Positions 2,783 to 20,022 of a DNA stretch of 64,000 nt are shown one piece after another. Location of the stretch: assembly GCA_037380845.1 (NCBI GenBank), contig JARRRI010000007.1, positions 1-64,000 on the forward strand. The letters are read 5' to 3'. Origin of the DNA: Candidatus Sulfobium sp. (GTDB lineage Bacteria > Nitrospirota > Thermodesulfovibrionia > Thermodesulfovibrionales > UBA6898). How positions within the stretch are numbered: the first letter of the stretch is position 1; each line of letters begins with the position of its first letter. A program made the translations under genes and the position numbers. Under the pieces are notes generated by a model that made no database searches, was not told the DNA's origin, and saw only the letters and a list, made by a program, of their open reading frames with translations.

Positions 2783-4426
2783 ATGCTGAAAAAGAAATTC
2801 CAAAGGCTCTTAAGTAAAGGCCTGCTGACGGAAGATGAACTGGACCGTATCGTAGAGGCGTCCGTTTCTTCCGGAAAATACCCGGAGGAACTTCTTCTCG
2901 AAAAAGGGGTCCCCAGGCACGAGGTCCTTTTTTGCCTCTCCGAATATTACGACTGCCCTTTTGCGGAATACGATGAAGGCCTCATGGCCCCCTACCTGGT
3001 TACCATGAGGCTGCAACTCGAAAAACACAGGCGCGAACTCTGGTTCCCACTGGCTGTAAGAGAGGACTCCGCGGAGGTCGTTGCATATAATCCCGGCGCC
3101 GCCGAAGTAATCGAAGACATCAGAAATACCCTTGGAGTAGAAGAAGTCAATTTCCGCGTCGCCCTCCCCGCCGATATTACCCGCATTGTCGAGAACAACT
3201 TCGATGTCAACCCCGGCTTCCCCTTCGGCGGTGGAAGGACCCCCCTTGCCCTCGTAAGGGTGTTCCTTGCCTACAGACGCTCCACCTTCGCACATTACAG
3301 GACGCTTTTTGCAAAGGGACGGACGGGCCTGGCCTTTGTCCGGACCGGTCTGGCCTTCATCGCGATTTCACTTACCTTTCTGAGGGTCTTCGGCACTGGT
3401 CTCTGGTCAGTGCTGGAAGTGCCGTTCATCCTGGCCGGTCTGGTAATGATCTTTGACGGCACCAGATGGTATATCCCTTCTCGGGCCGTCGGCCGTAACC
3501 CCATGGACAACTCTTCGACGGAGCCGACGGGAGGGACGAGCATGCTTACGGTTTCGATTGAGAAAGGCCACCCCGTTTTCAGGAGGACCGGAATAGTGGA
3601 GGGGGCCGAGAAATTGAGGGCCGGCTGGGACTGCCTTTCGCCGGTCATGAGACGAAGGTTCATCGCCTGCGACAGGTCTGACTTTGCCGAGGAAAGGACC
3701 GCTCTGGCAGGCCACAGGACGGTGCTCGCAAAGGCCAGGACCGGCCTTGCATTTACGCGGACCGGCATAGCCTTCGCCGGAATAGGGATAGGGTTGATCA
3801 GGCATTTTCACGCCAGCGGCTGGACCATATTCGACCTGGCCCTGATAGCCGCCGGCGTATTGATGTCGGCGGAAGGCTTTTACTGGTATTTCGGAGGACG
3901 CCGGGCCGGGATAGAGAGCTTCAGGGCCGTCCGCCGCATGAACATGAAGGAAAGCATATGGGATTTTGTAATTCCACTGCGTCACAAGCGGACAGGTCCG
4001 AGGAAAGGCAGCGCCTGCCCTCCCGTACTCGCCTCGCATCTTCCGGGGATCTGGGCCACCACAGGCCTTGCTTTGGAGAGGACCGTGCTTGCAGAAAGGC
4101 GTTGCGTGATGGCCCGTCTGAGGACCATCATGGCCAGGGCCAGGACCGGTCTGGCCTTTATAAGGACGGGCATCAGTATTACGGCCGTAGGCGCCGGCCT
4201 CATGGTTTTTTTCGGCACATCCGCTGCCGGCTGGACGATATTCAATACAGTACTTATAGTCGGAGGGATTACGCTGGTCGCCGACGGCTTCTATTGGGCG
4301 GTCCCCGCCGAGAATATCAGGGCACAGTACCCGTATTGTTACGGCGACATGGAGATAACCGTCCCTGATTATGGCAGGCCGGCGCGCCGGTGGGGAAAGG
4401 CTGTTTTCAGTCATGACGATATCTGA
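2783..4426 (+). CDS. MshEN/GspE-N-like domain fused to three DUF202 (YidH/Vtc1-like) membrane units
   Basis: N-terminus LLSKGLLTEDEL...EELLLEKG...LSEYYDCPF...WFPL...VVAYNP resembles T2SSE_N. Three R-T-x-L-A-x-x heptad ladders end in RTGLAFxRTG, each followed by two hydrophobic helices. ATG 2783 chosen as start. Confidence 0.75.
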   Translation: MLKKKFQRLLSKGLLTEDELDRIVEASVSSGKYPEELLLEKGVPRHEVLFCLSEYYDCPFAEYDEGLMAPYLVTMRLQLEKHRRELWFPLAVREDSAEVVAYNPGAAEVIEDIRNTLGVEEVNFRVALPADITRIVENNFDVNPGFPFGGGRTPLALVRVFLAYRRSTFAHYRTLFAKGRTGLAFVRTGLAFIAISLTFLRVFGTGLWSVLEVPFILAGLVMIFDGTRWYIPSRAVGRNPMDNSSTEPTGGTSMLTVSIEKGHPVFRRTGIVEGAEKLRAGWDCLSPVMRRRFIACDRSDFAEERTALAGHRTVLAKARTGLAFTRTGIAFAGIGIGLIRHFHASGWTIFDLALIAAGVLMSAEGFYWYFGGRRAGIESFRAVRRMNMKESIWDFVIPLRHKRTGPRKGSACPPVLASHLPGIWATTGLALERTVLAERRCVMARLRTIMARARTGLAFIRTGISITAVGAGLMVFFGTSAAGWTIFNTVLIVGGITLVADGFYWAVPAENIRAQYPYCYGDMEITVPDYGRPARRWGKAVFSHDDI

Positions 4427-5657
4427 TCTGGAGAAAGGTTTGGAATTCGAGGTATTAGCGGAATGGGGGGCAGTCAGCCGGGATCGCCTGCGTGAGGCGG
4501 AATACGCATCCCGCGCCAGGGGCGTCAGCCTGGAGAGGATACTGCTGTCCGATTACGGGATCCCCAAATATCTTCTCGTTCAGGCCCTTTCGAAGCATTA
4601 CGACTGTCCCGCCATCGAATACGACGAACGACTTCCGATCCCTCCCGAACTTCTGGAGGATCTTGACGCAGAGGTACTTTCAGGAAGCCTCTGGATGCCG
4701 GTGATAAGATGCGAGGACGGGACGGTGGTGATCGCTGCAAACGACCCTGAGAGCCCGACGGTGAGGGAGGAAGCCGGAAGATACCTCAATGCCCCGAATT
4801 ATGAATTCAGGGTCGCCCTGGAGGAGGATATACGCTGGTTTATCCAGGACTTCCTTCATGCCAGGCCCGGCCTGCTGATCGGCACGGAGAGGACCGGCCT
4901 CGCCTTCTGGCGGACCACCATGGCCCAATGGAGGACAAGACTCGCCTGCTACAGGACTGATCTGGCGAAGGCGCGGACGGGGCTTGCCTTCCTGCGCTGG
5001 GGACTCGGTACGGTGGCGATAGCCAACACCTTGCTAAAAAACAGAAACGTCAGCTCTTCGCCCTATTTCTATGTGGCGATCCTGGTCTTCGGTCTCGCCC
5101 TTTGTTCATACGGACTGCCGGTCTATCTGAAGGTGAGAAAATCGAGGATAAGTCCCCCCGGCAACCAGACCATCGTGGAAGTCACGGCCGCCACCCTGAT
5201 CTTCCTCGAAAACTATCATTTCATCGAAGACACCGGCGTCCGGCCGGAAACGAAGGGGACTATGCTCGCCCGGATGGAAACGAAGGGGACTATGCTCGCC
5301 CGGATGAGCGATTTTCTTGCCGACCACTGTACTGTACTCGCTCCCTCGCCTTCAAGCAAGGTCCGGACGATGTTTGCGCGGGAGAGGAATGTACTGGCGG
5401 CCCAGAGGACAATCGCGGCCTGCTACCGCACGATATACGCCCGCGCCAGAACAGGACTGGCCTTCATGCGCACCGGTTTTTCGTTCCTCAGCATAGGCCT
5501 CGGTCTGCTGGTCTATTTCGGCATCGGGCTTTTTACCGCCATCGACATCCTCCTGGTTCTGGCGGGGCTTTTGATGTTCGTCGACGGCATCCTGTGGTAT
5601 ATGCCGGTCAGAAAAGAGCAGGCCGAAATCCCCAGAAGCATCGCCTACCCCGACTGA
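4413..5657 (+). CDS. MshEN/GspE-N-like domain fused to two DUF202 membrane units; paralog of the upstream gene
   Basis: LAEWGAVSRDRL...ERILLSDYG...ALSKHYDCPAI...WMPV...IAANDP; two ladders ending RTGLAFLRWG and RTGLAFMRTG; overlaps the upstream gene by 14 nt. Confidence 0.75.
   Translation: MTISDLEKGLEFEVLAEWGAVSRDRLREAEYASRARGVSLERILLSDYGIPKYLLVQALSKHYDCPAIEYDERLPIPPELLEDLDAEVLSGSLWMPVIRCEDGTVVIAANDPESPTVREEAGRYLNAPNYEFRVALEEDIRWFIQDFLHARPGLLIGTERTGLAFWRTTMAQWRTRLACYRTDLAKARTGLAFLRWGLGTVAIANTLLKNRNVSSSPYFYVAILVFGLALCSYGLPVYLKVRKSRISPPGNQTIVEVTAATLIFLENYHFIEDTGVRPETKGTMLARMETKGTMLARMSDFLADHCTVLAPSPSSKVRTMFARERNVLAAQRTIAACYRTIYARARTGLAFMRTGFSFLSIGLGLLVYFGIGLFTAIDILLVLAGLLMFVDGILWYMPVRKEQAEIPRSIAYPD
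5246..5305 (+). repeat. Exact in-frame 30-bp tandem duplication (ETKGTMLARM x2)
   Basis: GGAAACGAAGGGGACTATGCTCGCCCGGAT at 5246-5275 and 5276-5305. Confidence 0.95.
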
Positions 5658-5712
5658 CTTCATAATGTCTTCATAATTTCTTCATAATCTTTTCATAATT
5701 TCTTCACAATAC
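5658..5712 (+). promoter_or_regulatory. Five 11-bp direct repeats; Pho-box/OmpR-family-like operator upstream of a -10-like element
   Basis: CTTCATAATGT CTTCATAATTT CTTCATAATCT TTTCATAATTT CTTCACAATAC, followed by TAATAT at 5720-5725. Confidence 0.65.
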
Positions 5713-5954: not shown

Positions 5955-6854
5955 ATGCATCTCATAAGCTATTATCTGGAGGCCTTTTTGTGGGCCATTT
6001 TTGTGGGGTTCGTATACACCTCGACCGGCGGCGCCGGGGGAGTGCTGGCGGTCTTTGGGTTCATAACCATCATGCATGCCCCTGTCAACCCCACAAAACC
6101 GATGAGCCTGATACTGGTCATCATCGCCGCCCTGGTGGCGATCCCTACATACATGAAACAGGAAAGGGTCAGGAAAATAAAGAAGGTGATAATTTACGCC
6201 GCCCTGTCGCTGGCCTCGGGTGGCATGATAGGAGGGATCGTGGGCCCATGGCTGTCTACGACATACCTTGCCAACGCCAAATCTTTCAAGTACTACTTCG
6301 GCTACATGATTCTTATCGTGTCCATTTTAATGACCTATAAAATCCTGAAGCAGGCAATGAGGGAAAGACAGTTGAAAAAAGCCTCCGCGGGCCTGGCCTT
6401 TGAGGACGATCCGCCCGCCGGCGAACTGCTGACGAAGACCGGAACGTTCACGCTGAAAAGGATGGATTATACGATCCTGGGCGTCGACTACTCTTTTTCT
6501 CCCGTAGCACTTTTTTGTGCGGGCTTAACCATTATAACGGTAGCCACTTTCTTCGGTGTGGGAGGCGGATTTCTGATTTCTCCTTTTTTTATCGACATGG
6601 TGGGGTTCCCCGTATTCGTCGCGGCGGGGGCCAGCGTTTTGGCGGTAATGTTTTCGGCGGCGGTAGCGACTGCCAATTACATGAGGATGCATGTTCATCT
6701 TATAACGCCCTATCTTTCAGTCGAAGCCGCCGGCATGGTGGCCGGCTCAATACTGGGGCCGAAGCTCTCCCCGCGTATAAACGAAAAATGGTTAAAAACC
6801 TTGCTCATCGGCGTGCTCTTTTTCATAGGAGCGCTATATCTGCTCAGATCCTGA
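5955..6854 (+). CDS. TSUP (TauE/SafE) family anion transporter
   Basis: Two repeated glycine motifs (TGGAGGVL and FFGVGGGFLISP) and about 8 TM helices. Confidence 0.85.
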   Translation: MHLISYYLEAFLWAIFVGFVYTSTGGAGGVLAVFGFITIMHAPVNPTKPMSLILVIIAALVAIPTYMKQERVRKIKKVIIYAALSLASGGMIGGIVGPWLSTTYLANAKSFKYYFGYMILIVSILMTYKILKQAMRERQLKKASAGLAFEDDPPAGELLTKTGTFTLKRMDYTILGVDYSFSPVALFCAGLTIITVATFFGVGGGFLISPFFIDMVGFPVFVAAGASVLAVMFSAAVATANYMRMHVHLITPYLSVEAAGMVAGSILGPKLSPRINEKWLKTLLIGVLFFIGALYLLRS

Positions 6855-6982
6855 AGTACGGGTGGTGATTTCGTCTGTTTCGACCTTCGCGCGCTGATCG
6901 ATGGAGCGGCTCAATGGTAAAAGTATTGTAATGGTCTTTGATATTGGAACGTCAGTTGGGGTTGCAGCCGTTCAGGTGAAAA

Positions 6983-8776
6983 ATGGACGCCGTTAGTCTT
7001 GAGGCCGGCGAAGGGCAGACCGGCAGACTTTCCGGTCTCATCTCCTGGCTTGAATCTCATATACACGAGCACACGGCACTTATTATCCTTTCCGTTATTA
7101 TCGGGGTTCTGGCCGGCCTTGCCAACGCCTTTCTGCATTTCAGCATGGACTTCGTCCACCATATTTTTTTCACACGGCTGGGGGGCTTTCTTTCACTCGA
7201 GCACGGAGGAATATACAAGGTATTACTGCCCCTTCTTCCCATCGGCGGCGCGCTCCTGCTGATACCGCTGTCGCTTGCCTTTCCCGGCGAGATAAACGGC
7301 TACGGTTTCCCGAATTTCATCGAAAAGGTGAACTTAAAAGGCGGCTTTCTCAAGCTGAGAAACATCCTGCTTAAGACCTTTTCCGTCGCCATCACCATAG
7401 GCAGCGGCGGGTCGGCCGGCGTGGAGGGACCGATAGCCGTAATCGGCGGCACCGTGGGCTCCGGGATAGGGCAGTATTTCAGGGCCTCCGGCAAAAGGCT
7501 GAAGCTCCTTATAGCGGCGGGCTCCGGCGCGGGAATAGCGGCGACTTTCAACGCCCCCATCGCGGGTGTAATGTTCGCCATGGAGATAGTGCTGCTGGGC
7601 GATTATGAGATGTCCTCCTTTGCCGCTATCGTCATAGCCGCAGCCATGGCCACGGTAGTAACGAGGGCTGTTTACGGCCCCAATCCGGCCTTCACGGTCC
7701 CGCAATACCACTTAAAGAGCATGGCGGAGCTGCCTCTCTATATGATATTCGGAGTCCTGATGGGATTTCTGGGCGTCTTGTATATCAAGGTCTTCCACGG
7801 CATCGCCGACAGATTCGAGAAGATTAAGATCCATCCCCAGATGAAGCCTGTGCTGGGGGGGTTGATAATAGGCCTGATCGCCATATTCCTTCCTCAGGTC
7901 ATGGGAAACGGCTACGACATCGTCAACCTGGCCCTGGTCGGCAAGATAACCTTCGTCATCGTCTTACTGCTCACCTTTTTCAAGATCGTGGCCACATCCA
8001 TAACCATCGGCTCCGGCGGTGCGGGCGGTGTCTTCGCCCCCTCGCTCTTCATAGGGGCCATGGCAGGGGATACTTACGGCTACATCGTCCACTGGCTCTT
8101 CCCCGGCTTCACCGCTTCTCCCGCGGCTTACGCGAGCGTCGGGATAGGCTCTTTCCTCGCCGCCGCGACGCATGCGCCGCTTACGGGGATCTTCCTCATG
8201 TTCGAGATGACCGGCGACTATCAGATCATAGTTCCGGTCATGCTGGCATCCGTAATCGGCACACTTGTGGCCAGGAGGCTCTTCCATGACTCCATCGATA
8301 CGGTCCCCCTTACCAGGAGGGGCATAAATTTACACGCGGGGCGTGAAGTAGGCATCATGAGCAGTATCAAGGTCAGGGATATCATGAGAAAGGACTTCGT
8401 AACGGCTCCTGAAGACTCCAGGCTGGACAAGCTCATAAACGAAATGATCAACAGGGAGAATTTCTATATTCCCGTACTTAACGCCGACGGACTGATGACG
8501 GGGATAGTCTCGTTCCACGACGTAAGGCTCATTGTGACGGAGGCGCGCGTAAGGGATGTTGTCCGGGCGAAGGAGATAGCCACTGAGGACGTGCTAGTCG
8601 TATTCCCGGACCAGGACCTCAATGCCGCTGTGGAGAAGTTCGCGCTGAAAGCAATAGACGAACTGCCGGTTGTGGAAAGAAGCGAACCCGGAAAGGTAAT
8701 CGGCATGATAAGCAGAAAAGATGTCTTCTCGGCTTACAATAAAGAAGTCCTGAAAAAAGCCGCATCGGCTGTCTGA
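6983..8776 (+). CDS. ClC family chloride channel/transporter with tandem CBS domains
   Basis: GSGGSAGVEGP, ATFNAPIAG, GGVFAP, HAPLTG, EMTGDY; C-terminal CBS pair starting VRDIM. Confidence 0.92.
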   Translation: MDAVSLEAGEGQTGRLSGLISWLESHIHEHTALIILSVIIGVLAGLANAFLHFSMDFVHHIFFTRLGGFLSLEHGGIYKVLLPLLPIGGALLLIPLSLAFPGEINGYGFPNFIEKVNLKGGFLKLRNILLKTFSVAITIGSGGSAGVEGPIAVIGGTVGSGIGQYFRASGKRLKLLIAAGSGAGIAATFNAPIAGVMFAMEIVLLGDYEMSSFAAIVIAAAMATVVTRAVYGPNPAFTVPQYHLKSMAELPLYMIFGVLMGFLGVLYIKVFHGIADRFEKIKIHPQMKPVLGGLIIGLIAIFLPQVMGNGYDIVNLALVGKITFVIVLLLTFFKIVATSITIGSGGAGGVFAPSLFIGAMAGDTYGYIVHWLFPGFTASPAAYASVGIGSFLAAATHAPLTGIFLMFEMTGDYQIIVPVMLASVIGTLVARRLFHDSIDTVPLTRRGINLHAGREVGIMSSIKVRDIMRKDFVTAPEDSRLDKLINEMINRENFYIPVLNADGLMTGIVSFHDVRLIVTEARVRDVVRAKEIATEDVLVVFPDQDLNAAVEKFALKAIDELPVVERSEPGKVIGMISRKDVFSAYNKEVLKKAASAV

Positions 8777-8808
8777 TCCGGCGTCGATTCCCCGCAAAGC
8801 CGTAAACG

Positions 8809-8843
8809 GACCTCGAAGATGGTAATCCGCGGGGTCTTTTTTT
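8809..8843 (+). terminator. Possible intrinsic terminator after the ClC gene
   Basis: GACCTCG...CGGGGTC stem (one G-U pair, long loop) followed by T7, between convergent genes. Confidence 0.4.
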
Positions 8844-10422
8844 ACCCGCCGCCTGCTTCCTTCGCCGCCGCGACTGCCTCGTCGCCCGGCCGCTCATTTC
8901 TCAGGACAGACAGGAAGGCCGAGAAAAGGCCGAGAGCCGCCAGCACTCCCAGCACGACGAGATATCCCTTCATAAAGGCGGCATCTTTTACCGAAACAGG
9001 TATGAGCCGGTTATGGAATATATGCTGGACGTCGTAGAACCCCTTGTCCACCACATATTTATCCTCCAGACTGGTGAAAATAAGGCCGGAGATATCCACG
9101 CCGAATATGAGCCCCAGAGAGCGCATCATGTTCAGTATGCCTCCGGCGACGCTCAGTTTGTCCTTCGGGGCTGCGCCCATTATGGCACTGTTATTGGGCG
9201 GCGTAAAAAGTCCCATCCCTACACCAAGCAGTATCAGTATGACCACAAGAACCGCAAGATGGGAGGACTCCCCAAGAAGCATGAGAAGGAAACAGGCCAG
9301 GGCGCAAAGAAGCATGCCGGCGGTGGTCATCAGCCTCGGGCCTCGCCTGTCCGAGACGCTGCCGGCAAGGGGGGCCACGAGCCCCATGGCAAGAGGTATC
9401 GGCACAAGCAGGCTGCCCGTCAGCGCTACGCTGTAGCCGACCACCTTTTCGAGGTAGAAGGGCATCAGGAACATAATCGCAAAAAGGACGTAATAAGACA
9501 GCATGCCGGTCAGATTGCCTGCGGAAAACGTGAAGCTCCTGAACATTTTAAGGTCTACAAGCGGATATCTGACCTTGAGTTCCGTAATGATGAAGAGGCC
9601 GAGCAGAACGACCCCGAGGGCGAAAAAGGAAATTATCCTCGGCGATGTCAGCCCCAGTTTGACAACTTCGTTGAAGGCCAGCACCAGGAAGAGAAGACCG
9701 GTGGAGAAAAAAGCTGCACCCAGGTAATCAATCTTCTCTTTGTGCTCTTCCACCCGGTCGCGCGGCAGAATGAAGAGGGCGGCCAGTGTGCCGAAAATCC
9801 CTATGGGTACGTTTATATAGAATATGGCGCGCCAGCCTATCGCAGCTATGAGAACGCCGCCCACGAACGGACCGATAGACATCGCCACTGCCTGTACCGC
9901 CCCCTGGATGCCGATCGCCTTGCCCCTCTCATTGGACGGAAAGGCCGCCGTGATTATGGCAATGGAATTTGCCTGAAGAAGGCCGGCCCCTATCGCCTGC
10001 AGGGTGCGGGATCCGATTATGAAGTGGGCCGAAGGGGCCATGCCGCAAAAGGCGGAGCCGATGGTGAAGACTACGAACCCCGCATTATACAGTCTGGACC
10101 GGCCGTATATGTCGGCCAGCCTTCCGAAGAGTGGCAGAAAGATGGTAAGCGTAAGCATGTAAGCTATTGCGACCCACTCGATGGTGGCCAGCGAAACGTT
10201 GAAGTCGGACTTCAGTGTCGGCATGGCGATATTTACTATGCTTACATCCAGGGCGGACATGGTCGCGCCTATGAGAACGGTCGTCAGGATAAACCACCTC
10301 CATCCCGGATGTGAAGAGAAGGATGGATGTGGAAAAGACCGCCGCCTGGACATATCACGGGCCTCCTTAACGCCTCTTTCGGACCGGTCAGCCATGGGAA
10401 CGGCCTTCCCGGTTTCGGACAT
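8842..10422 (-). CDS. DHA2 (EmrB/QacA) family MFS efflux transporter
   Basis: LDVSIVNIAMP, GRLADIYGR, GPFVGG, WRAIFYINVPIG; about 14 TM helices. Confidence 0.9.
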   Translation of the reverse strand: MSETGKAVPMADRSERGVKEARDMSRRRSFPHPSFSSHPGWRWFILTTVLIGATMSALDVSIVNIAMPTLKSDFNVSLATIEWVAIAYMLTLTIFLPLFGRLADIYGRSRLYNAGFVVFTIGSAFCGMAPSAHFIIGSRTLQAIGAGLLQANSIAIITAAFPSNERGKAIGIQGAVQAVAMSIGPFVGGVLIAAIGWRAIFYINVPIGIFGTLAALFILPRDRVEEHKEKIDYLGAAFFSTGLLFLVLAFNEVVKLGLTSPRIISFFALGVVLLGLFIITELKVRYPLVDLKMFRSFTFSAGNLTGMLSYYVLFAIMFLMPFYLEKVVGYSVALTGSLLVPIPLAMGLVAPLAGSVSDRRGPRLMTTAGMLLCALACFLLMLLGESSHLAVLVVILILLGVGMGLFTPPNNSAIMGAAPKDKLSVAGGILNMMRSLGLIFGVDISGLIFTSLEDKYVVDKGFYDVQHIFHNRLIPVSVKDAAFMKGYLVVLGVLAALGLFSAFLSVLRNERPGDEAVAAAKEAGGG

Positions 10423-10725
10423 GCCCTTTACTGTGCATCGCCCCCCGCACGCATTTCATATGAAAAGTTTAGCTATTGCCCGGACGGATTACTACGCCTT
10501 TCTTGAGGACTTCGTGGTCATGCCCGGAGACAGGCTCGAAAAACAGAATATGCTAAAGAACGGAAGAGATGCGGCAGCCCGGGTCCGATCGAGTAACATT
10601 CAGCCCTTCTTCGCACCTTTGCGGGATTGTCTTCACTAAGCATCTGAAATGAGATAAACTTATTTCCGGATGGTTTGACTTCGCACTTTTGTGCAAGGAA
10701 GCTGTATAAATAAAAGGAGTTTCAA

Positions 10726-11148
10726 ATGATTACCAAAATGCTTGTCGGCTTTGACGCCTCCGAAGAATCATACAAGGCCTTTGATTTCGCACTTGACATG
10801 GCTGTTTCCCACAAATCCGAGCCGGAGATTCTGGTCCTTTCCGTGGTCAGGCCACCAGAGGGCATGAACCTTTTCGACACAGGCAGTCTGATCGATGAGG
10901 CCACTAAAGAATTCAAAACTGAGTTAAAAGGTCTTGAAGAAAAGGCCGGGCACACGAACGTCAGGATCAGCACCGAGGTTGCCGTAGGGCATCCGGCCGC
11001 CACGATCGTGAAGTTCGCGGAGGAAAGGAGTTGTTCACTGATAATAGTAGGCCACAGGGGCAGGTCGAAGCTTGGGGGTCTGCTCCTTGGGTCAGTGTCA
11101 AGACATATTGCCTCCCTGGCCGGGTGCACTGTTGTGATTGTCAGATAA
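10726..11148 (+). CDS. Universal stress protein (ATP-binding type)
   Basis: KMLVGFDAS...GHPAATI...GHRGRSKLGGLLLGSVS; SD AAGGAG. Confidence 0.92.
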   Translation: MITKMLVGFDASEESYKAFDFALDMAVSHKSEPEILVLSVVRPPEGMNLFDTGSLIDEATKEFKTELKGLEEKAGHTNVRISTEVAVGHPAATIVKFAEERSCSLIIVGHRGRSKLGGLLLGSVSRHIASLAGCTVVIVR

Positions 11149-11160
11149 TCTGCGGGTTCC

Positions 11161-13857
11161 CTACTTCCTGTTCATCCGCCTCAGGATATCACCGAGCTTC
11201 TGAATCTCCTCCCCGTAAAGCGGCCAGTCTCCCCTGCGCTGGGCCTCCATCGCCCGCTCAAAATGCTCTACCGCCCTGGAAGGCAGGTTCACTTCAGGCA
11301 CCGCGGACGGTGCCGGCCGGACAAGCGCTTCGACCTTCTCCATGGTCGACTGGCCGAATATACTGGCAAGGGCGCCATCGAGAGTCGTATCCATGGCTAT
11401 GCGGTCTTCGTATGCCACGATGACCCTCTTCAGCTCGGGTATCTTTCCCGTTTCGGCCCTGATATAGAGCGGCTGTACGTAGATCAGCGAATTCTCCACC
11501 GGAATGACGAAAAGGGTGCCCTGTCTCACATCGGAACCCCTCTGGTTCCATAGGGAAAGCTGTTGTGATATCTCAGGCTCCTGGTTTATCCTGGCGACGA
11601 TCTGCTGCGGCCCGTAAACAAGCCTGTCTTTCGGGAACCGGTAGACAATGAGCTTCCCGTAATCCCCGCCGTCGCATCGTGCGGCCATCCACGCCGAGAG
11701 GTTGTCCTTCTCCTTGGGGGTAAAGGGGAGCATGAGGATATACTCCTCGCTTTTCTCTCCCGGAAGCTTCATGATGGTATAGTACGGGTCCATCTGTGCA
11801 TGCTCGCTTCTGCCGCCCATAACCGGTATCTCCCATTCGTCTTCCCTGTTGTAAAAAGTCTGGGGATCCCGCATGTGATACGTCGTGTATACCGCCGTCT
11901 GAATGCTGAAAATATCCTTGGGATAGCGGATGTGCTTCCTGAGGTCCGGCGGCATGTCCGAAATGGGTTTCAATATTCCCGGGAATATCCTGCTGATCGT
12001 GCGGATGATCGGATCGTCTTCGTCCGCGATATAGAACTTCATACTTCCGTCGTAGGCGTTTATCGTCACTTTCACGGAATTCCTTATGTAGTTTATGCCC
12101 GAAAAAGGCTGAGAATAAGGAAACCGGCTGCTTTCCGTGTATGCGTCATATATCCAGAAGAGTTCGCCGTCTTTCGATATCACCATGTAGGGGTCCCGGT
12201 CCAATACGAGGAACGGCATTACCGCCTGCACCCTCTTCGTTATGTTCCGCTTGAACATGATTTTGCTCTGAGGGGTCACATACCTCGACAGAAATAACTT
12301 GAGAGAGCCGAAATACTCTGCAAAGATCAATTTTCTAAGGTCCGAGCCGACCCTCAACCCCCCTTTGCCCGCATATGTGTCATAGACGTTCCCGTCTTCC
12401 GAAGGGTAGTTGAACTCCTTTGCCTTCGTGTCGACTATCGCATAATCACTGGCAAGCTCGCCGTAATAGATCTCCGGCCGCTTCACCTGCAGGCCCTTTG
12501 CCGTGGAGCCTGGCGGGATGTCCTTTATCATCATTACCGGCAGCCCGTCGGGGGTTATCTCGTTGCTCAGACCGAGGGTCAATCCGTATCCGTGCGTAAA
12601 TGTAAGGACCTCGTTGATCCAGTTCCTGGTAGGGATGCTCTCGGTCGACAACTCCCTGGGCGAAAGGAGAGTCTGCCGGTATCTTCCGTCGATCATATAA
12701 CGGTCGTTGTCGATGGACACGAACTGGTAGTAAGTCCGTATCTCCTGCACCTGACCGAAAGTGTCGAGCAGCGGTCTCCGCTCCCAGAGGCGGATATTGT
12801 CGATCGTAGCCTTGTTGCGTTCGATGTCGGCGTTGCTGAGGGCCATGTCTCCGGAGATGTCTTTTTCCTCAACCCTGTTGAGATCGAAGGCCTTCCTCGT
12901 CGCCGCAATATTGTATCGTATGTAAGGAGTTTCCATTTCAAGTTCGCTCGGAGCTACCAGGAACTTCTGGAGAAGAGAAGGGTAAACAAGGCCGCCCAGG
13001 AAGGTAAGGACGACATAGGCCCCGATAGTACCGACGACGAGCCATCTTTTTTTCAGCAAGAGGTTGCTCAGGACGAGTAGCCCGGCAATTATCGCCGCCA
13101 TCAGCTGAACCTTCAGAAAAGGAATCATCGCATGGACATCGGCGTAGGTAGCTCCGGCCACGTGTCCATGGGATGAATAGATGATCTCGTGCATCTGAAT
13201 ATAGGCATTGAAAGCCAGTATCCAGAATAACAGGGCCCCAAGGACTGTAAGATGTATAGAGGGGACCTTCTCCATGGCAACCCCGTTCCGGCGCACAGAC
13301 ACCGTCCCCCTGGCAAGATAAATGCCGGCAACCAGCAGAAAAGAAATGACCAGAAGTGAAAGGACAGTCCCGCCGATGATATCGAAGACCGGAATGGCGA
13401 AAAGATAGAAAGACACGTCTTTGTGGAATATGGGGTCGGAGTGCCCAAACGGTACGGCATTGAAATAGGACAGAAAGTCAAACCAGCTGTCATGGAAGAG
13501 GACTGCGACAATAAGACCGAACATGGCGGGCATGATCAACTTCAGCTTGTCCAGATTATCGACTATGCGCCGAACGAGCTGAGTGTCCCATGCCGCCGGC
13601 AGGTTCACCGCCCTGCCCTTCGTGGCCCCCAGCGCGAACGCTATGCTGATATAAGTGATCACAAACCCGGCAGCGAATCCGGCAAGGGAAGAAATGGTCT
13701 GGGCTGTGACCTCCTTTTCAAATATTCCCTTGAACTGAAGGCCGCTGAACCAGAGCCAGTCGACATAGAGGGAAAGAAGCTTCGGCACGATCATTGCGGC
13801 CAAACCGATGCCAACGATTACCGCTATCTCAGTGCGTGAAAGTCTGCTGCTTTCCAT
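11161..13857 (-). CDS. UPF0182 (COG1615) family membrane protein
   Basis: YVDWLWF, DPIFHKDVSFYLF, NIRLW, DNDRY, FTHGYG, PEIYYGE, NYIRNSVK, YVQPLY, IPELKRV. Start moved to ATG 13857, which follows SD AGGAGGA. Confidence 0.92.
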   Translation of the reverse strand: MESSRLSRTEIAVIVGIGLAAMIVPKLLSLYVDWLWFSGLQFKGIFEKEVTAQTISSLAGFAAGFVITYISIAFALGATKGRAVNLPAAWDTQLVRRIVDNLDKLKLIMPAMFGLIVAVLFHDSWFDFLSYFNAVPFGHSDPIFHKDVSFYLFAIPVFDIIGGTVLSLLVISFLLVAGIYLARGTVSVRRNGVAMEKVPSIHLTVLGALLFWILAFNAYIQMHEIIYSSHGHVAGATYADVHAMIPFLKVQLMAAIIAGLLVLSNLLLKKRWLVVGTIGAYVVLTFLGGLVYPSLLQKFLVAPSELEMETPYIRYNIAATRKAFDLNRVEEKDISGDMALSNADIERNKATIDNIRLWERRPLLDTFGQVQEIRTYYQFVSIDNDRYMIDGRYRQTLLSPRELSTESIPTRNWINEVLTFTHGYGLTLGLSNEITPDGLPVMMIKDIPPGSTAKGLQVKRPEIYYGELASDYAIVDTKAKEFNYPSEDGNVYDTYAGKGGLRVGSDLRKLIFAEYFGSLKLFLSRYVTPQSKIMFKRNITKRVQAVMPFLVLDRDPYMVISKDGELFWIYDAYTESSRFPYSQPFSGINYIRNSVKVTINAYDGSMKFYIADEDDPIIRTISRIFPGILKPISDMPPDLRKHIRYPKDIFSIQTAVYTTYHMRDPQTFYNREDEWEIPVMGGRSEHAQMDPYYTIMKLPGEKSEEYILMLPFTPKEKDNLSAWMAARCDGGDYGKLIVYRFPKDRLVYGPQQIVARINQEPEISQQLSLWNQRGSDVRQGTLFVIPVENSLIYVQPLYIRAETGKIPELKRVIVAYEDRIAMDTTLDGALASIFGQSTMEKVEALVRPAPSAVPEVNLPSRAVEHFERAMEAQRRGDWPLYGEEIQKLGDILRRMNRK

Positions 13858-14078
13858 GTATGTTCCTCCTCTGCCAGAAAAGGCGCGGCTTCCAGGAGCT
13901 ACTGCACTTTTTATGTTAATCCCACCGGCCGCAAAAATACCACTCCCCGGGACGCAGTAGTTCGTGTCCGGCGGCACGATTTTCCGGGAAATACGGCGGC
14001 AAGCGGCGGTTCTGACCTGACGCCGCAAGGGTCCCGGTGCGCAATCTCACACGCGTCAATAGAGTATAATAGGGGAAA

Positions 14079-15497
14079 ATGAAGATAGAAAATAATATCA
14101 TACTATCGAATGTGTTCAATATCGCGCTGATTCTCCTGGTCGGTTTTTTTGCACTGCAGAACCTCAATGTCATGCTCACCAAGCTGAGGTTTGTCGAGAT
14201 AGCCGACGACCTGAACGCTTCATTCCTTGAAATGCGGATTTCCGAAAAAAATTATTTCCTTTACGGAGACGAGGCTGCACTGTTCGAAATAAGGGACAAG
14301 ATAAACAATACCATGGAGTCCATCGAGGCGGTGAAAAACGATATTTCCCGGGCCATCGGTGAAGGCAATCTCGAAAAGCTCAGGGACTATCTGAAGAGGT
14401 ATTCCATTGCGGTGGAAGAGATGAGAAGAAGCGGTACCAGGGACATACAGATGGAGACGATGCTGAGGGCGGCAGGCAGAAAACTGAGGGAGTTCTCGGA
14501 AGAAACCACGAGGCTCGAAAAGAGAAAGGTGAACGAGATCATCGCCAACTCCAAGAAGGTGCTGTTTTATTCATTCTGGGCCATCGTCGCCATGGCCATA
14601 GTCGTGAGTCATTTCATATCCCAGAAAATCCTGCGCTCCCTGAGGGAAATAGAGAAACTGGCGAAGTCGATTTCCCAGGGGAACTTCAGCGGGGTAAGGG
14701 GGGCGGTGCCGGCCGATGAATTCGGAACGGTAATGAACGCTATCAATACCATGTCGGAAGAACTGAAGACCCGGGAGGAAGAGCTTATCCAGTCAAAAAA
14801 ACTGGCGTCCCTGGGGGTCCTCACTGCGGGCGTTGCTCACGAACTGACCAACCCGTTGAACAACATATCCATGATCGCCCAGAATTTTGTGGAATATCAT
14901 GACTTCCTTAACAGGGAAAACAGGATAGAGCTTATGAAGAAGGTGGAAGGCGAGGCCGAGAGGATCCAGGAGATCGTCAGGAACCTCCTGGACTTCTCGA
15001 AGCCCAAAGAAGCGAACCTCAGGGAAGCCGACATAAACGACACCGTGCAGAAATCGCTGGCACTCATGCAGAACACTCTGGACATCTCAAACATAGAGAC
15101 CAGCCTGTCTCTGCGACCGGGTCTTCCCCACGTGTTCATAGACGACCACCAGATACAGCAGGTGCTTGTGAACCTCATCCTGAACGCGGTACACGCGATG
15201 TCGCCCGGGGGAACCCTGTACCTTTCAACGGAAGCCGGCGAAAACGGCGACACGGTCAGGATCGATGTCAGGGACACCGGCAAGGGGATACCTCCGGAAT
15301 TTATTTCCCATATATTCGACCCCTTTTTCACCACCAAAGGGGTAGGGGGGACGGGCCTCGGTCTGTCGGTCAGCTACGGGATAGTCAAAAACCATGGAGG
15401 CTACGTGAAGGTGGAAAGTACGGTGGGTTCCGGGACCACGTTCACCATAGAACTTCCGGTATACAGAGGAAAGGAGGCAGGAAATGGACAAATATAG
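14079..15497 (+). CDS. Membrane sensor histidine kinase with a HAMP domain
   Basis: Two TM helices, periplasmic LEMRISEKNYFLY, H-box AGVAHELTNPL, N-box NLILNA, DTGKGI, FDPFFTTK, GTGLGL. Confidence 0.95.
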   Translation: MKIENNIILSNVFNIALILLVGFFALQNLNVMLTKLRFVEIADDLNASFLEMRISEKNYFLYGDEAALFEIRDKINNTMESIEAVKNDISRAIGEGNLEKLRDYLKRYSIAVEEMRRSGTRDIQMETMLRAAGRKLREFSEETTRLEKRKVNEIIANSKKVLFYSFWAIVAMAIVVSHFISQKILRSLREIEKLAKSISQGNFSGVRGAVPADEFGTVMNAINTMSEELKTREEELIQSKKLASLGVLTAGVAHELTNPLNNISMIAQNFVEYHDFLNRENRIELMKKVEGEAERIQEIVRNLLDFSKPKEANLREADINDTVQKSLALMQNTLDISNIETSLSLRPGLPHVFIDDHQIQQVLVNLILNAVHAMSPGGTLYLSTEAGENGDTVRIDVRDTGKGIPPEFISHIFDPFFTTKGVGGTGLGLSVSYGIVKNHGGYVKVESTVGSGTTFTIELPVYRGKEAGNGQI

Positions 15498-15858
15498 GAT
15501 AATGGTGATCGATGATGAAAAGATAGTCTGTGACATGGCAAAAATGTCTCTCGAACAGGAAGGCTACGAGGTTGAGACATTCCTCAATGCGGAGCCGGCG
15601 CTAAAGAGGCTGGCGGAACAAAAATTTGATATTGTGGTCACCGACTATAAAATGAAAGGTATAGACGGGATGGAGGTGCTGAGGACCGTACGGAAGCTTT
15701 ACCCCGAGACGAGGGTAATAATGATTACGGCCTTTGCAAACCTGGATGCGGCCATCGAGGCGTTGAGGTCCGACGTGCATGATTTTTTTCCGAAGCCGGT
15801 AAAGATCAAGGAGCTGAAGGCGTCTATCCAGAGGGCGCTGGAAGAAGAAAACAGGTAA
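15484..15858 (+). CDS. Single-domain response regulator (receiver only)
   Basis: MVIDDE, VVTDYKMKGIDG, MITAF, FFPKP; 124 aa with no output domain. Confidence 0.92.
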   Translation: MDKYRIMVIDDEKIVCDMAKMSLEQEGYEVETFLNAEPALKRLAEQKFDIVVTDYKMKGIDGMEVLRTVRKLYPETRVIMITAFANLDAAIEALRSDVHDFFPKPVKIKELKASIQRALEEENR

Positions 15859-15933: not shown

Positions 15934-18498
15934 ATGAAGGATATTGTGGGACATTTGAAGTCTCTCCTGGGGCTGTCCAGGAAGCTGCACGGGGGGAGTC
16001 TTCCGTTCACAGAGGTCTTCAGGAGGTTCAGGGACGTCCTCGACAACAACAACCGCGCGCTCGAGATAATCACCGACATGGGGGAAAAACTGGGTGGCGA
16101 CTATCTCTTCGACGTGAACTACATCAGGGACGCTTATTCGCGGCTGTCGGGCGTCGTCGCCGGAGCTGTCCACAACTTTGACATCCTCACCCGCGGCCGG
16201 TACGGGCAGTTGCCGAAAGTATTCGAAAGAATCGACTCCCGGGTCACGGGGATGATATATGATGTGGCTTCCGTTTCGGGGGAGAGGGTTTTCTTTTATG
16301 AGGACATCTCCTGGGACATGGCGCGGGAAGTGGGGGGGAAGAACTCCGCCCTCGCCGAGATGATGAATTATCTGAAACTGAACGTGCCCGGCGCCTTCGC
16401 CATCACGACCCATGCCTTTGACGAATTCATGGAACATAACAGGTTGAATGCTGTGGTGGAAGAACTTCGGCACGGCGGGCCGGATGAGGCGAAGCTAGCC
16501 CGGATCCGGGACCTCATCATGCAAGCGGAAATCCCTGCGGGGCTGGACGCCGACATCGACGCGGCACTGGAAAAGATGAAGGAGAGATGCGGCGGCCCCT
16601 GTTTTCTGGCGGTAAGAAGCAGCGGGGAGGAGGAAGACGGGGAGTTTTCGTTTGCCGGACAGTTTGAGACCGTGCTGAACGTGACCCCTGAAGGCGAGGA
16701 ACTAAAAGCGGCCTACAGGAAAGTTCTTGCGAGCCTGTTTTCAGCCAAGGCGGCTGCCTATCAGAGGAGGCTCGGATATGAACCGGGGAAGATGAAGATG
16801 GCGGTGGGTTGCGTAGTCATGGTGGACGCGGTGTCGAGCGGGGTGGTCTATTCCTCCAGTCCCGACGGCGACAGGGGGACCCTTATCGTCAACGCGACGT
16901 GGGGGCTGGGAGAGTCGATCGTCGAAGGCCGGACAGACAGTGATTTTTACAGGGTGAGGAAGGGTGCTGAACCCGAAATATTGAGCGAGCAGGCAGGCAG
17001 CAAACAGTTCATGATCGTGAACCGGACGGGAGGAGGGACCGAGAGGATCGCTACCCCGGCTGACCGGGCGGGAAGACCCTGCCTTACACCGGAACAGGTG
17101 AAGGAACTCGCGGGTGTGGCCATGTTGATAGAGAAGCATTTCAGGAAACCGCAGGACATCGAATGGGCGATCGATTCCGGCGGGAGGATTTTTATTCTCC
17201 AGGCCAGACCCCTGCGAATCCAGGAAGAGGCGACAGCAAGGACCGTCCACGCCCCCCGGCCGGAAAGGCCCGGACCGGTCCTGATTAAAGACAGGGGGGT
17301 TGTCGTCCAGAAGGGCACGGGCGGAGGGACGGTATTCATCGTCCGAAACCCCGGTGAACTGGAACATTTCCCGAAAGGGTCCGTACTGGTTGCAAAACAT
17401 GATTCCTCGGATTTTGTACGGGTCATGCCGTTCGTGTCTGCGATCATAACCGACACGGGTACGCCCACCAGCCACATGTCCTCCCTCTGCAGGGAATTCA
17501 GGGTGCCCACCATAGTTAACGCAGGCGACGCGACCGTAACGCTGAAGCAGGGTCAAAAAGTTACCGTGCACGCCACCGGGGAAGGCTCCGTAGAGGTATA
17601 TGAGGGCATCAACAGGGACCTGATCGAGCATGAAGAGAGGGTCTCCATGAAGATGGAGGACGTCTATGAATACCGGAAGAAAAGGTTTGTGCTCAGATAT
17701 ATATCGCCCCTGAACCTCGTCGACCCCCTCCTGGACGATTTCGTGCCCGAAAGATGCAAGACCATACATGACATACTGAGGTTCATGCATGAAAAGTCGG
17801 TGGCGGAACTCGTCGACAGCGCCCGCTACGGCACCTCGATGCTGAAGAAACAGGCCGCAATCAAACTCGATCTGCCTATACCGGCAGGGATAATCGTAAT
17901 CGATATCGGCGGTGGTCTGAGCGTCCCCCCCGGCCGGGAAAAAGCGACGCTTGAACAAATCACTTCTGTTCCGCTCAGGGCCATTGTGAAGGGAATGATG
18001 CACCCGGGCGTATGGCATTCCCATGCGGTTTCATTGAAGGTGAACGACTTTCTGTCGAGCATGATGAGGATGTCGGACATAACTGCCGGGGACAATGAAT
18101 ACGTAGGCTACAACGTCGCGGTCGCTTCGGGTGAGTACATGAACCTCAGCCTGAGGTTCGGTTATCACTTTAACATGATAGACTGCTACTGCAGTGAAAA
18201 CACCCGCAACAACCATCTCTATTTCAGGTTTGTCGGCGGCGCTACCGACATCGTAAAACGCTCACGGAGAATAGAGCTTCTGGCAGCAATTTTGAGAGAA
18301 TATGGTTTTAATATAAAATCGAAGGGAGACCTTATCATCGCGAGGCTGGCCAATATAAGCAGGGAAGAGCTGGCCGGACTCCTCGATCAGACAGGCAGGC
18401 TGATCGCCTTCACAAGACAACTGGACGCCGTCCTTAACGATGACTCCGATGTTGAGCTGTACTCCCGGAATTTTATTGAGGGGAATTACGAATTCTAG
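15934..18498 (+). CDS. PEP-synthase-like dikinase: ATP-grasp and phospho-His domains plus a non-TIM-barrel C-terminal domain
   Basis: GGKNSAL, AVRSSGEEED, FAGQFETVLNV, DIEWA, LQARPL, TPTSHMSSLCREFRVP; the C-terminus (HDILRFMHE, RFGYHF, FRFVGGA, RQLD) is unlike PpsA. Confidence 0.85.
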   Translation: MKDIVGHLKSLLGLSRKLHGGSLPFTEVFRRFRDVLDNNNRALEIITDMGEKLGGDYLFDVNYIRDAYSRLSGVVAGAVHNFDILTRGRYGQLPKVFERIDSRVTGMIYDVASVSGERVFFYEDISWDMAREVGGKNSALAEMMNYLKLNVPGAFAITTHAFDEFMEHNRLNAVVEELRHGGPDEAKLARIRDLIMQAEIPAGLDADIDAALEKMKERCGGPCFLAVRSSGEEEDGEFSFAGQFETVLNVTPEGEELKAAYRKVLASLFSAKAAAYQRRLGYEPGKMKMAVGCVVMVDAVSSGVVYSSSPDGDRGTLIVNATWGLGESIVEGRTDSDFYRVRKGAEPEILSEQAGSKQFMIVNRTGGGTERIATPADRAGRPCLTPEQVKELAGVAMLIEKHFRKPQDIEWAIDSGGRIFILQARPLRIQEEATARTVHAPRPERPGPVLIKDRGVVVQKGTGGGTVFIVRNPGELEHFPKGSVLVAKHDSSDFVRVMPFVSAIITDTGTPTSHMSSLCREFRVPTIVNAGDATVTLKQGQKVTVHATGEGSVEVYEGINRDLIEHEERVSMKMEDVYEYRKKRFVLRYISPLNLVDPLLDDFVPERCKTIHDILRFMHEKSVAELVDSARYGTSMLKKQAAIKLDLPIPAGIIVIDIGGGLSVPPGREKATLEQITSVPLRAIVKGMMHPGVWHSHAVSLKVNDFLSSMMRMSDITAGDNEYVGYNVAVASGEYMNLSLRFGYHFNMIDCYCSENTRNNHLYFRFVGGATDIVKRSRRIELLAAILREYGFNIKSKGDLIIARLANISREELAGLLDQTGRLIAFTRQLDAVLNDDSDVELYSRNFIEGNYEF

Positions 18499-18653: not shown

Positions 18654-19325
18654 ATGATACCCCTGAGTGATGCCGACCGGCGGCCCGTCCGGTTTCCGCT
18701 CATCACCGTCCTCATCATCGGCGCCAACTCCGCTGTCTTCCTGCTGGAGCTCATGAAGGGCCGGCACTTCATATTGTCGCTGTCCTATATCCCGGCGCAC
18801 ATCGTCGGAGGCAGGGACCTGCTCACCATTATTACGGCGATGTTCGTTCACGCCGGATGGCTGCACATACTCGGGAACATGGTTTATTTCTGGGCCTTTG
18901 CTCCCGAGATCGAAGACGTCATGGGCCGGTGGCGGTTTGCGGTATTCTATCTGGTAGGAGGTATCGTAGCCTCACTCGTCCAGATAGGGATAAACCCCGC
19001 CTCGACGCTCCCCAACCTCGGGGCCAGCGGCGCCATAGCGGCTGTAATGGGGGCCTTCCTCATCACTTTTCCGCGGGACAGAATCCGCACCATTGTTATT
19101 CTCGGCTTTTTTGTCATTATTCCGTTTATCCCCGCGATGGTACTCGTCGGGATATGGTTCGTCCTGCAACTGTTCATGGAGGCAGGATCGGTGATGGCCG
19201 GTCAGACTGGAGGGGTGGCCCATATGGCCCACATAGGCGGCTTCTCTTTCGGGCTCCTGACGGCGCGCATTTTTGAAACTTCAAGGAAGCGGTCCGGCGG
19301 CCGCGGGACCGGCAGGCAACGGTGA
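18654..19325 (+). CDS. Rhomboid family intramembrane serine protease
   Basis: MFVHAGWLHILGNM, GASGA, AHIGG. Confidence 0.92.
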   Translation: MIPLSDADRRPVRFPLITVLIIGANSAVFLLELMKGRHFILSLSYIPAHIVGGRDLLTIITAMFVHAGWLHILGNMVYFWAFAPEIEDVMGRWRFAVFYLVGGIVASLVQIGINPASTLPNLGASGAIAAVMGAFLITFPRDRIRTIVILGFFVIIPFIPAMVLVGIWFVLQLFMEAGSVMAGQTGGVAHMAHIGGFSFGLLTARIFETSRKRSGGRGTGRQR

Positions 19326-19888: not shown

Positions 19889-19993
19889 TTATCCCTGAGC
19901 GCACTTGCCTCCGCCGGGTCCCGGGTCAATCACCGGCCGGAGGTCAATCCCCGGGAAGGAGTAACGACCGGAGGTCCGTGGCGGCGTTATGCT

Positions 19994-20022
19994 TTGAAGA
20001 CGCGCTTCGCATGAGATATAAT
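19994..20022 (+). promoter_or_regulatory. Sigma70-type promoter for the usp and H+-ATPase genes
   Basis: TTGAAG-N17-TATAAT. Confidence 0.55.

Follow-up and report, generated by a model that had tools for sequence, protein, structure and literature searches.

Paired Bacterial DUF202 Proteins with Invariant Arginine Ladders: A Possible Five-Hairpin Anion Conduit in Candidatus Sulfobium

Two overlapping genes, A3 and B2, lie near the start of the stretch of DNA analyzed here (the window), which comprises the initial 64 kb of contig C7 in a Candidatus Sulfobium genome assembly (3.18 Mb, 104 contigs, 100% complete by markers). A3 (2783–4426, + strand) encodes a membrane protein of 547 amino acids (aa) with an MshEN-fold domain, three DUF202 hairpin units, and a conserved C-terminal tail, and B2 (4413–5657, or 4371–5657 if an earlier start is used, + strand) encodes an MshEN-fold domain followed by two DUF202 hairpins. 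Each of the five units opens with a ladder of arginines at seven-residue spacing, which is nearly invariant among relatives and has two positions that align with pore residues of VTC, the complex behind the vacuolar polyphosphate (polyP) store; the two genes are strictly paired and belong to a conserved operon. The reading that we favor, with slightly less than even confidence, is that A3 and B2 together form a five-hairpin, arginine-lined anion conduit.

Domain Architecture and Arginine Ladders

The ATG at 4413 is favored as the start of B2 by an alignment of 17 orthologs and yields a protein of 414 aa, whose gene overlaps A3 by 14 nucleotides (nt); the earlier ATG at 4371 would give 428 aa and an overlap of 56 nt. 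Against the Pfam model of DUF202 (PF02656, cut-off 23.4 bits), A3 scores 52.4 bits over three stretches, located in a genome scan at 3299–3469, 3716–3892, and 4121–4279, and it matches MshEN with 29.6 bits. B2 matches MshEN with 41 bits and DUF202 with 24.3 bits in only one stretch, whereas a hidden Markov model (HMM) of the unit, built in this analysis, recognizes all three A3 units and both B2 units, the second of which is missed by Pfam. Both proteins score above the DUF202 cut-off, and Pfam and the unit HMM agree with the initial annotation in describing two overlapping paralogous genes, in which an MshEN domain is joined to three and two DUF202 units, respectively.

Arginines at exact seven-residue spacing begin at R152 (6), R291 (6), and R433 (5) in A3 and at R174 (6) and R332 (6) in B2, and this recount is identical to the series 6, 6, 5, 6, 6 first read from the sequence. 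The A3 units, each a ladder with its two-helix membrane hairpin, occupy 3236–3478 (R152–R187), 3653–3895 (R291–R326), and 4058–4309 (R433–R461) on the + strand; in the third, T426 takes the place of the would-be sixth arginine. Those of B2, on the same strand, occupy 4890–5141 (R174–R209) and 5364–5609 (R332–R367). All five are delimited by hydropathy, the unit HMM, and conservation, and those of A3 also by an AlphaFold2 model. Within a unit, R-T-x-L-A-x-x is repeated into a hydrophobic helix, from which a short loop leads to another hydrophobic helix. The five units can be aligned with one another, and with a YidH-like protein encoded elsewhere in the window, without gaps across an ERTxLAWxRT-type signature. 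Among 20,000 shuffles per protein, a ladder of at least five arginines arose in 53 (A3) and 29 (B2), and none contained more than one such ladder, compared with three in the real A3 and two in the real B2.

The AlphaFold2 model of A3, obtained from a 17-sequence alignment (predicted local distance difference test, pLDDT, 76.5; predicted template modeling score, pTM, 0.67), has helices at residues 153–203/209–237, 287–341/349–388, and 421–477/482–515. In each unit one continuous helix of 51–57 residues is paired with a return helix of 29–40 residues, and the presence of two hydrophobic helices per unit is seen both in these A3 helices and in the hydropathy profile. Based on the helix lengths and the hydropathy profile, approximately five heptads of each ladder would be expected to extend some 5 nm into the cytoplasm. 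The net charge of the five ladders, counted by hand on the window sequences, is about +33. Beyond the third unit, the C-terminal tail of A3 (4310–4423, + strand) carries the conserved motif YPYCYGDMEI..PDYG, recognized in the alignment, with P517, Y518, C519, P528, D529, Y530, and G531 as invariant columns among the orthologs; residues 517–547 are modeled with low confidence (pLDDT below 50).

Between its two units, B2 contains an exact tandem duplication of 30 nt (residues 293–312; window 5247–5306), such that ETKGTMLARM occurs twice. The duplication is absent from 16 aligned orthologs, and the 30 nt are likewise missing in the contigs of all four public runs covering the region, near-identical ones included; it is either a rare allele or an assembly artefact. 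No RNA run covering the locus was present among the 20 runs listed.

Distribution, Pairing, and Conservation

More than 1200 proteins match A3 at E ≤ 0.001, the best 120 of which are 472–612 aa long and 58–100% identical. Relatives are encoded by 234 stretches in species-representative genomes, and the locus counts in this text rest on the best 79 of these. The 79 loci fall into two phyla, namely Nitrospirota (including Thermodesulfovibrionales, Dissulfurispiraceae, and "Ca. Sulfobium") and Desulfobulbales-type Deltaproteobacteria; the latter include Desulfocapsaceae, Desulfurivibrionaceae, and Hydrosulfovibrio ferrireducens CB1MN, the named strain to which locus L074 appears to correspond. 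In all 79 loci an A3-type gene is directly followed by a B2-type gene, and the two matches also adjoin each other in a scan of the phylum, where the pair was found in 52 of 301 sampled genomes and was concentrated in one family (37 of 64).

Three units were recognized by the unit HMM in 83 of 83 A3 sequences and two in 77 of 81 B2 open reading frames (ORFs), the four exceptions being accounted for by a gene broken into two parts (L005) and by a pair of genes truncated at contig ends (L042, L063). Ladders of 6, 6, and 5 arginines are retained in 71 of 82 A3 sequences and ladders of 6 and 6 in 74 of 81 B2 sequences, and each of the 29 ladder positions is occupied by arginine in 98–100% of cases (81 A3 and 77 B2 sequences). 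Heptad position a has a mean column entropy of 0.01 bit, compared with 0.29 at b (Thr), 0.42 at e (Ala), and 0.7–0.9 at c, d, f, and g. The invariance of the 29 arginines and the constant 3 + 2 composition provide an evolution-based hint that five DUF202 modules work together in bacteria too, and ladder invariance likewise hints at the arginine face as the working surface of the domain.

The five unit types are resolved as separate clans in a tree built from 85 units (support 0.89–1.0), and unit 1 of A3 groups with unit 1 of B2 (support 0.88). Because each unit type forms its own clan, the five positions appear to be old and non-equivalent, having become distinct before the sampled lineages split; such non-equivalence is as expected if the units hold fixed places in an asymmetric ring. 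A natural fusion of all five units was not seen among proteins of 959–2735 aa, which is weak evidence; the 1003-aa protein P0171 is, by eye, a multi-MshEN protein without DUF202.

Relation to the VTC Pore and Proposed Assembly

Passages of PMC9911596 describe VTC as a 3:1:1 pentamer of Vtc1, Vtc3, and Vtc4 with three transmembrane helices per subunit, in which the five first transmembrane helices (TM1) form the channel; the stoichiometry and cationic TM1 channel that the initial annotation had stated are confirmed there. The same passages assign Vtc1 K24 and R31, Vtc4 K622 and R629, and Vtc3 K694, K698, R705, and R709 to the upper channel wall and report that mutation of channel residues eliminated the vacuolar polyP store, as followed by in-cell 31P nuclear magnetic resonance (PMC9911596).

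When a profile of the five units and the YidH-like protein was compared with 177,635 PDB sequences, Vtc1 chains (9umg, 8i6v, 7ytj) were the four best matches, with K24, R31, and N38 aligned to ladder positions 4, 5, and 6, respectively (E 0.02–0.05). By homology, the ladder would extend the pore-lining stripe of TM1, adding three arginines on the cytoplasmic side and one at greater depth. In a helical-wheel projection, the invariant arginine lies between the conserved Leu (d) and Ala (e), beside Thr (b), a pattern that would fit an arginine directed toward the center of a ring of helices, with the adjacent residues forming the helix–helix contacts. The YidH-like protein used for comparison (141 aa; 25480–25905, + strand) is the ordinary family member in the window; three heptad arginines, R19, R26, and R33, were counted in it by hand, which is the number noted previously, and three hydrophobic helices are recognizable by eye.

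Since the two genes are paired, the ladder arginines are invariant, and the ladders align with K24 and R31 of Vtc1, a VTC-like ring of five hairpins can reasonably be inferred for A3–B2. A3 and B2 would be co-translated and would most simply assemble as a 1:1 complex in the inner membrane, with the five DUF202 hairpins arranged like the VTC subunits. The first helix of each hairpin, a continuous helix of about 50 residues that comprises ladder and TM1, would contribute to an inner ring, into the common axis of which the invariant arginines would point, with Thr, Leu, and Ala beside them on that face of the helix. The result would be a strongly cationic conduit or vestibule that starts about 5 nm within the cytoplasm and leads into the membrane, and by which the complex could bind an anionic cargo or let it through. 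The GSPII/MshEN-fold domains at the two N-termini may be the modules by which a protein partner docks or exerts gating, and the complex presumably works with a sensor kinase, a single-domain receiver, and a phosphotransferase resembling phosphoenolpyruvate (PEP) synthase, all inherited along with it.

The best structural matches of A3 residues 160–524 are arcs of designed α/α toroids and a helical barrel (6xr1, Z 10.6, root-mean-square deviation (rmsd) 3.7 Å over 166 aligned residues; 7rdr, Z 10.4; 8qai, Z 8.7), but the toroid Z values lie within the chance range for helical-repeat models, so that these matches are weakly indicative and would be compatible at most with a curved arc of three hairpins. 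VTC chains are not among the matches listed for the whole A3 model in the fold searches, which are dominated by the N-terminal domain and generic helical repeats and so carry no information on the fold of a single module. Several observations weigh against a ring of this kind. The sequence match to Vtc1 is marginal (E 0.02–0.05), and Vtc1 has three membrane helices per module, compared with two in the A3 and B2 units. The predicted sum of five repeats in paired homologs is obtained as 3 + 2 in every complete pair but not in three of the 79 loci (L036, L043, L055), where the order A3-A3-B2, with three units in each A3, amounts to eight units. These tandem A3 genes are reminiscent of alternative subunits, as which Vtc2 and Vtc3 serve in yeast. 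Among the representative proteins, P0144 (399 aa) appears to be a two-unit A3, and P0148 has no N-terminal domain.

More distant relatives bring in a different explanation of the ladders. A profile search of 1.84 billion representatives returned 58 proteins at E ≤ 1e-30, and nine hits beyond the A3 and B2 types were read by eye. P0186, P0195, P0208, and P0229 have a single hairpin after about 15–25 RTxLAxx heptads (counted by eye), and P0189 and P0190 join a ladder and hairpin to a C-terminal region that resembles, by eye, a receiver domain; in all six, Glu or Asp stands beside most of the arginines. The RTxLAxx heptad is, to judge from these sequences, a general building block. The long-ladder, single-hairpin relatives also count against the conduit, as their appearance suggests a structural coiled-coil stalk rather than the lining of a pore. 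In the corresponding alternative, which we consider possible but on the whole doubtful, the arginine-striped helices of A3 and B2 would form a rigid cytoplasmic coiled-coil stalk, held by Arg–Thr or Arg–acid networks or against anionic lipid head groups; it would act as a membrane-anchored scaffold or signal transmitter that positions the GSPII domains, the receiver, and the dikinase, and nothing would cross the membrane. A ladder of 15–25 heptads with acidic residues beside most arginines is far longer than a membrane pore needs, and the combination with a receiver-like region in P0189 and P0190 points in the same direction, as do the conserved neighbors of the pair, which are signaling proteins (histidine kinase, receiver, Usp), and the known role of GSPII-fold domains as protein-docking modules, e.g., in the complex of the PilB N-terminal domain with PilZ (7lko). 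However, the A3 and B2 ladders are hardly charge-balanced, given the net charge of about +33 counted by hand, the Vtc1 counterparts of the ladder residues line an actual channel, and a stalk leaves the conserved total of exactly five units unexplained. With P0229 as the query, a search of 151 genomes of the phylum matched mainly A3 and B2 units and brought up no evident long-ladder gene with a single unit.

The N-Terminal GSPII/MshEN-Fold Domains

The N-terminal domain of A3 (residues 1–141; 2783–3205, + strand) is assigned to the GSPII/MshEN fold by the Pfam match and by structural comparison. It superimposes on MshE in complex with cyclic di-GMP (c-di-GMP) (5htl_B, Z 14.1, rmsd 3.4 Å, 138 aligned residues), on XpsE (2d28, Z 13.2, rmsd 3.5 Å, 136 aligned residues), and on PilF (6f8l, Z 12.9), and Foldseek matches it to the GSPII-B domain of PilF with E 1e-4 and a TM-score of 0.68 on the target. 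The Pfam MshEN match in both A3 and B2 and the identity of the nearest solved structures, c-di-GMP-bound MshE and PilF GSPII-B, would accord with a c-di-GMP-gated channel, in which the MshEN domains bind the nucleotide as in MshE and PilF and thereby open or close the DUF202 ring. According to passages of PMC5013675, the c-di-GMP site is built from two tandem 24-residue motifs, RLGxx(L/V/I)(L/V/I)xxG(L/V/I)(L/V/I)xxxxLxxxLxxQ, of which a relaxed form is given too, and XpsE, although of the GSPII fold, does not bind c-di-GMP. Neither the strict nor the relaxed motif was found in any of 82 A3 and 76 B2 orthologs (158 in all) or in either window protein, the positions of the RLG triplet are held by other residues in alignments read by eye, and the non-binding XpsE shares the fold (2d28, Z 13.2). 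Gating by c-di-GMP was rejected because the binding motif is absent throughout the orthologs, and we give this reading next to no credence.

Of the regulation by two MshEN-fold domains that was originally envisaged, the fold is borne out, whereas sensing of c-di-GMP is unlikely given the absence of the motif from all 158 orthologs. Because of this absence, the N-terminal domains are read as probable protein-docking or gating modules rather than as c-di-GMP sensors.

Conserved Neighborhood and the Partner Dikinase

A conserved gene set around the pair was defined by clustering all ORFs from the 79 loci. Downstream, a HAMP histidine kinase is found in 55 of the 79 loci at a median gap of 24 nt after B2, together with a cluster of proteins containing a receiver domain (REC; 49/79) and a dikinase of about 858 aa (52/79). 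Upstream of the pair are an Alph_Pro_TM protein (TIGR02186) and a tandem Usp protein (37/79 each), as well as a 166-aa protein without a Pfam match (27/79). A TauE/SafE permease stands next to the pair, usually upstream, in 38/79, and a DHA2 pump of the major facilitator superfamily (MFS) is encoded on either side in 15/79.

The window presents a rearranged version of this set. The conserved operon partners are a sensor histidine kinase with HAMP, HisKA, and HATPase_c domains (14079–15497, + strand), a single-domain receiver consisting of REC only (15484–15858, + strand), and a PEP-synthase-like dikinase of 854 aa (15934–18498, + strand), in which an ATP-grasp and a mobile His domain are followed by a C-terminal domain of 295 aa instead of a TIM barrel. 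They are separated from B2 by genes identified with Pfam as a TauE/SafE-family (TSUP) anion permease (5955–6854, + strand), a CLC protein with CBS domains (6983–8776), a DHA2-type MFS pump (8842–10422, − strand), a Usp (10726–11148), and a UPF0182 protein (11164–14028, − strand). The surroundings of the operon partners (5955–14028 and 18654–23388) are rich in ion-handling and stress genes, i.e., TauE, CLC-CBS, DHA2 MFS, two Usp, UPF0182, a rhomboid protease, a GNAT acetyltransferase, and a P-type cation ATPase; farther along, a Kup potassium transporter is encoded at 36101–37912.

The match of the 854-aa dikinase to the PEP-synthase model NF005057 of NCBIfam covers model positions 6–478 of 798, and its match to PDB 2ols has E 2.5e-63. 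Its last 295 residues give no Pfam match even at E ≤ 1, and hence no PEP-utilizers_C, and are conserved with 61% mean column identity. Only one marginal match to this domain was obtained among PDB sequences (2joi, E 0.023); its model (pLDDT 69) resembles small ferredoxin-like domains at best (Z 7.7 over 78 residues), and Foldseek returned no match at E ≤ 0.001 (best E 0.018).

An ortholog of this C-terminal domain was found in 47 of the 52 genomes that carry the pair and in 4 of 249 that do not, as cross-tabulated by hand for the 301 genomes; the pair without the ortholog was found in 5, and neither in 245. Orthologs scored at least 425 bits and paralogs at most 302 bits, the threshold having been chosen after the scores were seen, and the five carriers without an ortholog are assemblies of 170–460 contigs that are 63–98% complete. 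The counts describe a strong association and do not amount to a statistical test, as related genomes are not independent.

The link to a dikinase without an acceptor domain, which had been suggested from the gene flanking A3, is real and stronger than was stated; the conserved partner, however, is the dikinase at 15934–18498 and not the upstream one. The latter, a large dikinase cut by the contig start (3–2714, + strand), is represented by its C-terminal 903 aa of about 1490 aa and contains a PPDK_N ATP-grasp and a mobile His domain (Pfam, NCBIfam); Pfam detected no PEP-utilizers_C match and no PEP/pyruvate TIM barrel in it. Of the 79 loci, L002 alone has this large type beside the pair, and a 1274-aa protein downstream of the pair in L037, considered as a relative, proved unrelated on comparison. 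A complete copy of 1492 aa, the N-terminal ~990 residues of which have no Pfam match, is encoded on contig C70 (L080:1463–5941). On this contig (L080:1–5941) an A3 gene, truncated at the contig end and sharing 88% identity with that of the window, comes after the complete dikinase gene; the arrangement may represent a genuine paralogous locus or a strain variant that was co-assembled. Two different dikinases are present in the genome without a recognizable acceptor domain, at 15934–18498 and L080:1463–5941.

Five 11-bp direct repeats of CTTCATAATnT (5658–5712, + strand) begin one base after the B2 stop codon, about 240 bp upstream of the TauE gene; the window holds eight near-matches, compared with 2.4 expected. 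The doubled motif is shared with only L001 and L002, the two closest loci, and three other sites in the genome match it with at most two mismatches, adjoining ATP-synthase a/MerR, OEP, and ABC-2 genes. As these neighbors are not Pho genes, the description of the repeats as Pho-box-like finds no support and was dropped. A period of 11 bp would suit a winged-helix response regulator, and the repeats are possibly an operator for a response regulator that controls the TauE–CLC genes.

Cargo and the Polyphosphate Question

No PPK1, PPK2, Ppx-GppA, or VTC catalytic domain (PF09359) was found in this genome, although it is 100% complete by markers, and polyP, the cargo implied by the initial annotation, is therefore doubtful; we regard it as unlikely. 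Among the 52 carriers, PPK1 was found in two and PPK2 in none. Across the 301-genome sample of the phylum, PPK1 occurs in 50 and PPK2 in 90 genomes, almost entirely within three or four families, and neither was found in most anaerobic families. A carrier-specific anticorrelation with PPK was considered and discarded, since non-carrier sister families lack PPK1 and PPK2 as well, as illustrated by family f6 (0/11 for PPK1, PPK2, and the pair alike). The absence of PPK is a lineage trait and not a carrier trait, because non-carrier families of the same lineage share it.

This absence cuts both ways: either no polyP is made and the cargo is of another kind, or polyP is produced by a novel synthase for which the dikinase would be a candidate, the second option being highly improbable. 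Considering the TauE neighbor and the sulfur-cycling hosts, small oxyanions of sulfur or phosphorus would be a plausible cargo.

A reading closer to yeast would treat the system as a bacterial counterpart of VTC, in which the dikinase, by means of its phospho-histidine domain and its C-terminal domain, builds polyP or a different phosphate polymer and feeds it to A3–B2 for export or sequestration in lineages without PPK1 and PPK2. Homology to the VTC pore module is in line with it, and arginine rings that would be spaced about 10.5 Å apart over roughly 5 nm, a geometry derived from the seven-residue spacing, would suit a linear polyanion. The tight co-occurrence with a dikinase that has no recognizable acceptor domain and the failure to find PPK1, PPK2, Ppx-GppA, or the VTC catalytic domain in the complete genome also fit, as does the rarity of PPK1 (2/52) and PPK2 (0/52) among carriers. 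PPK1 itself works through a phospho-histidine intermediate, the kind of chemistry that this reading would ascribe to the dikinase. On the other hand, PPK is lacking lineage-wide (f6, 0/11), for which it is simpler to assume that little or no polyP is made; there is no TTM/CYTH polymerase; fold searches with the C-terminal domain of the dikinase were uninformative (top Z 7.7 over 78 residues; best Foldseek E 0.018); and a narrow literature search brought up hardly any work on polyP in these bacteria. Taken together, we consider such a counterpart improbable. Its boldest form, in which A3–B2 and the sensor-controlled dikinase constitute a prokaryotic VTC analogue whose phospho-histidine enzyme polymerizes phosphate or a different phospho-anion and threads the product through a pseudo-pentameric conduit of five stacked arginine rings, is a shade more remote. 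If it were true, a PPK-independent route to polyP would exist in anaerobic sulfur-cycling Nitrospirota and Desulfobulbales, and bacterial DUF202/YidH proteins in general would be pentameric anion channels.

To our knowledge, DUF202/YidH is a very large bacterial family without known function, the only studied members of which are pore subunits of the eukaryotic polyP machine. Our literature search found no functional study of YidH/DUF202 (the titles concerned a structure-prediction survey and codon-usage studies), no paper joining "MshEN" and "DUF202", and no study of the A3–B2 architecture; by title or beginning of the abstract, papers retrieved for DUF202 and polyphosphate deal with polyP-binding proteins generally, dinoflagellates, and a diatom. 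A3–B2 offers a compact two-gene target for structural and flux work. If the dikinase feeds the conduit, the system would represent a new kind of coupled synthesis and translocation, and if the ladders are only a stalk, it would still be a new signaling architecture.

Comparison with Known Systems

The closest known system is the VTC ring (three Vtc1 with Vtc3 or Vtc2 and Vtc4; 7ytj, 8i6v, 9umg). Like A3–B2, it belongs to Pfam DUF202, has five modules per presumed complex, carries basic residues at seven-residue spacing on the first helix, and holds non-identical modules in fixed positions. VTC uses five chains, whereas A3–B2 uses two polypeptides (3 + 2), and about two basic residues per TM1 in VTC correspond to 5–6 invariant arginines in each A3 or B2 ladder. 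VTC further contains the TTM polymerase and SPX domains, both absent by Pfam from A3 and B2, which have GSPII/MshEN-fold domains instead; the hosts of A3–B2 are bacterial, and the known polyP enzymes were not found in the genome searched.

YidH-type proteins share with A3 and B2 the DUF202 domain and the ERTxLAWxRT signature that leads into TM1. They differ in being single modules with three hydrophobic helices and three heptad arginines and in having no cytoplasmic domain.

The N-terminal domains of MshE, PilF, and GspE (GSPII, MshEN, T2SSE_N) have a fold like that of the A3 N-terminal domain. There they sit on a secretion ATPase, while in A3 and B2 they are placed on a membrane module and are without the c-di-GMP motif.

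With PEP synthase (PpsA) and PPDK, the 854-aa dikinase has in common the ATP-grasp and the swivelling His domain. In contrast to these enzymes, it has no TIM barrel, is extended N-terminally by about 117 aa, and ends in its own conserved C-terminal domain of 295 aa.

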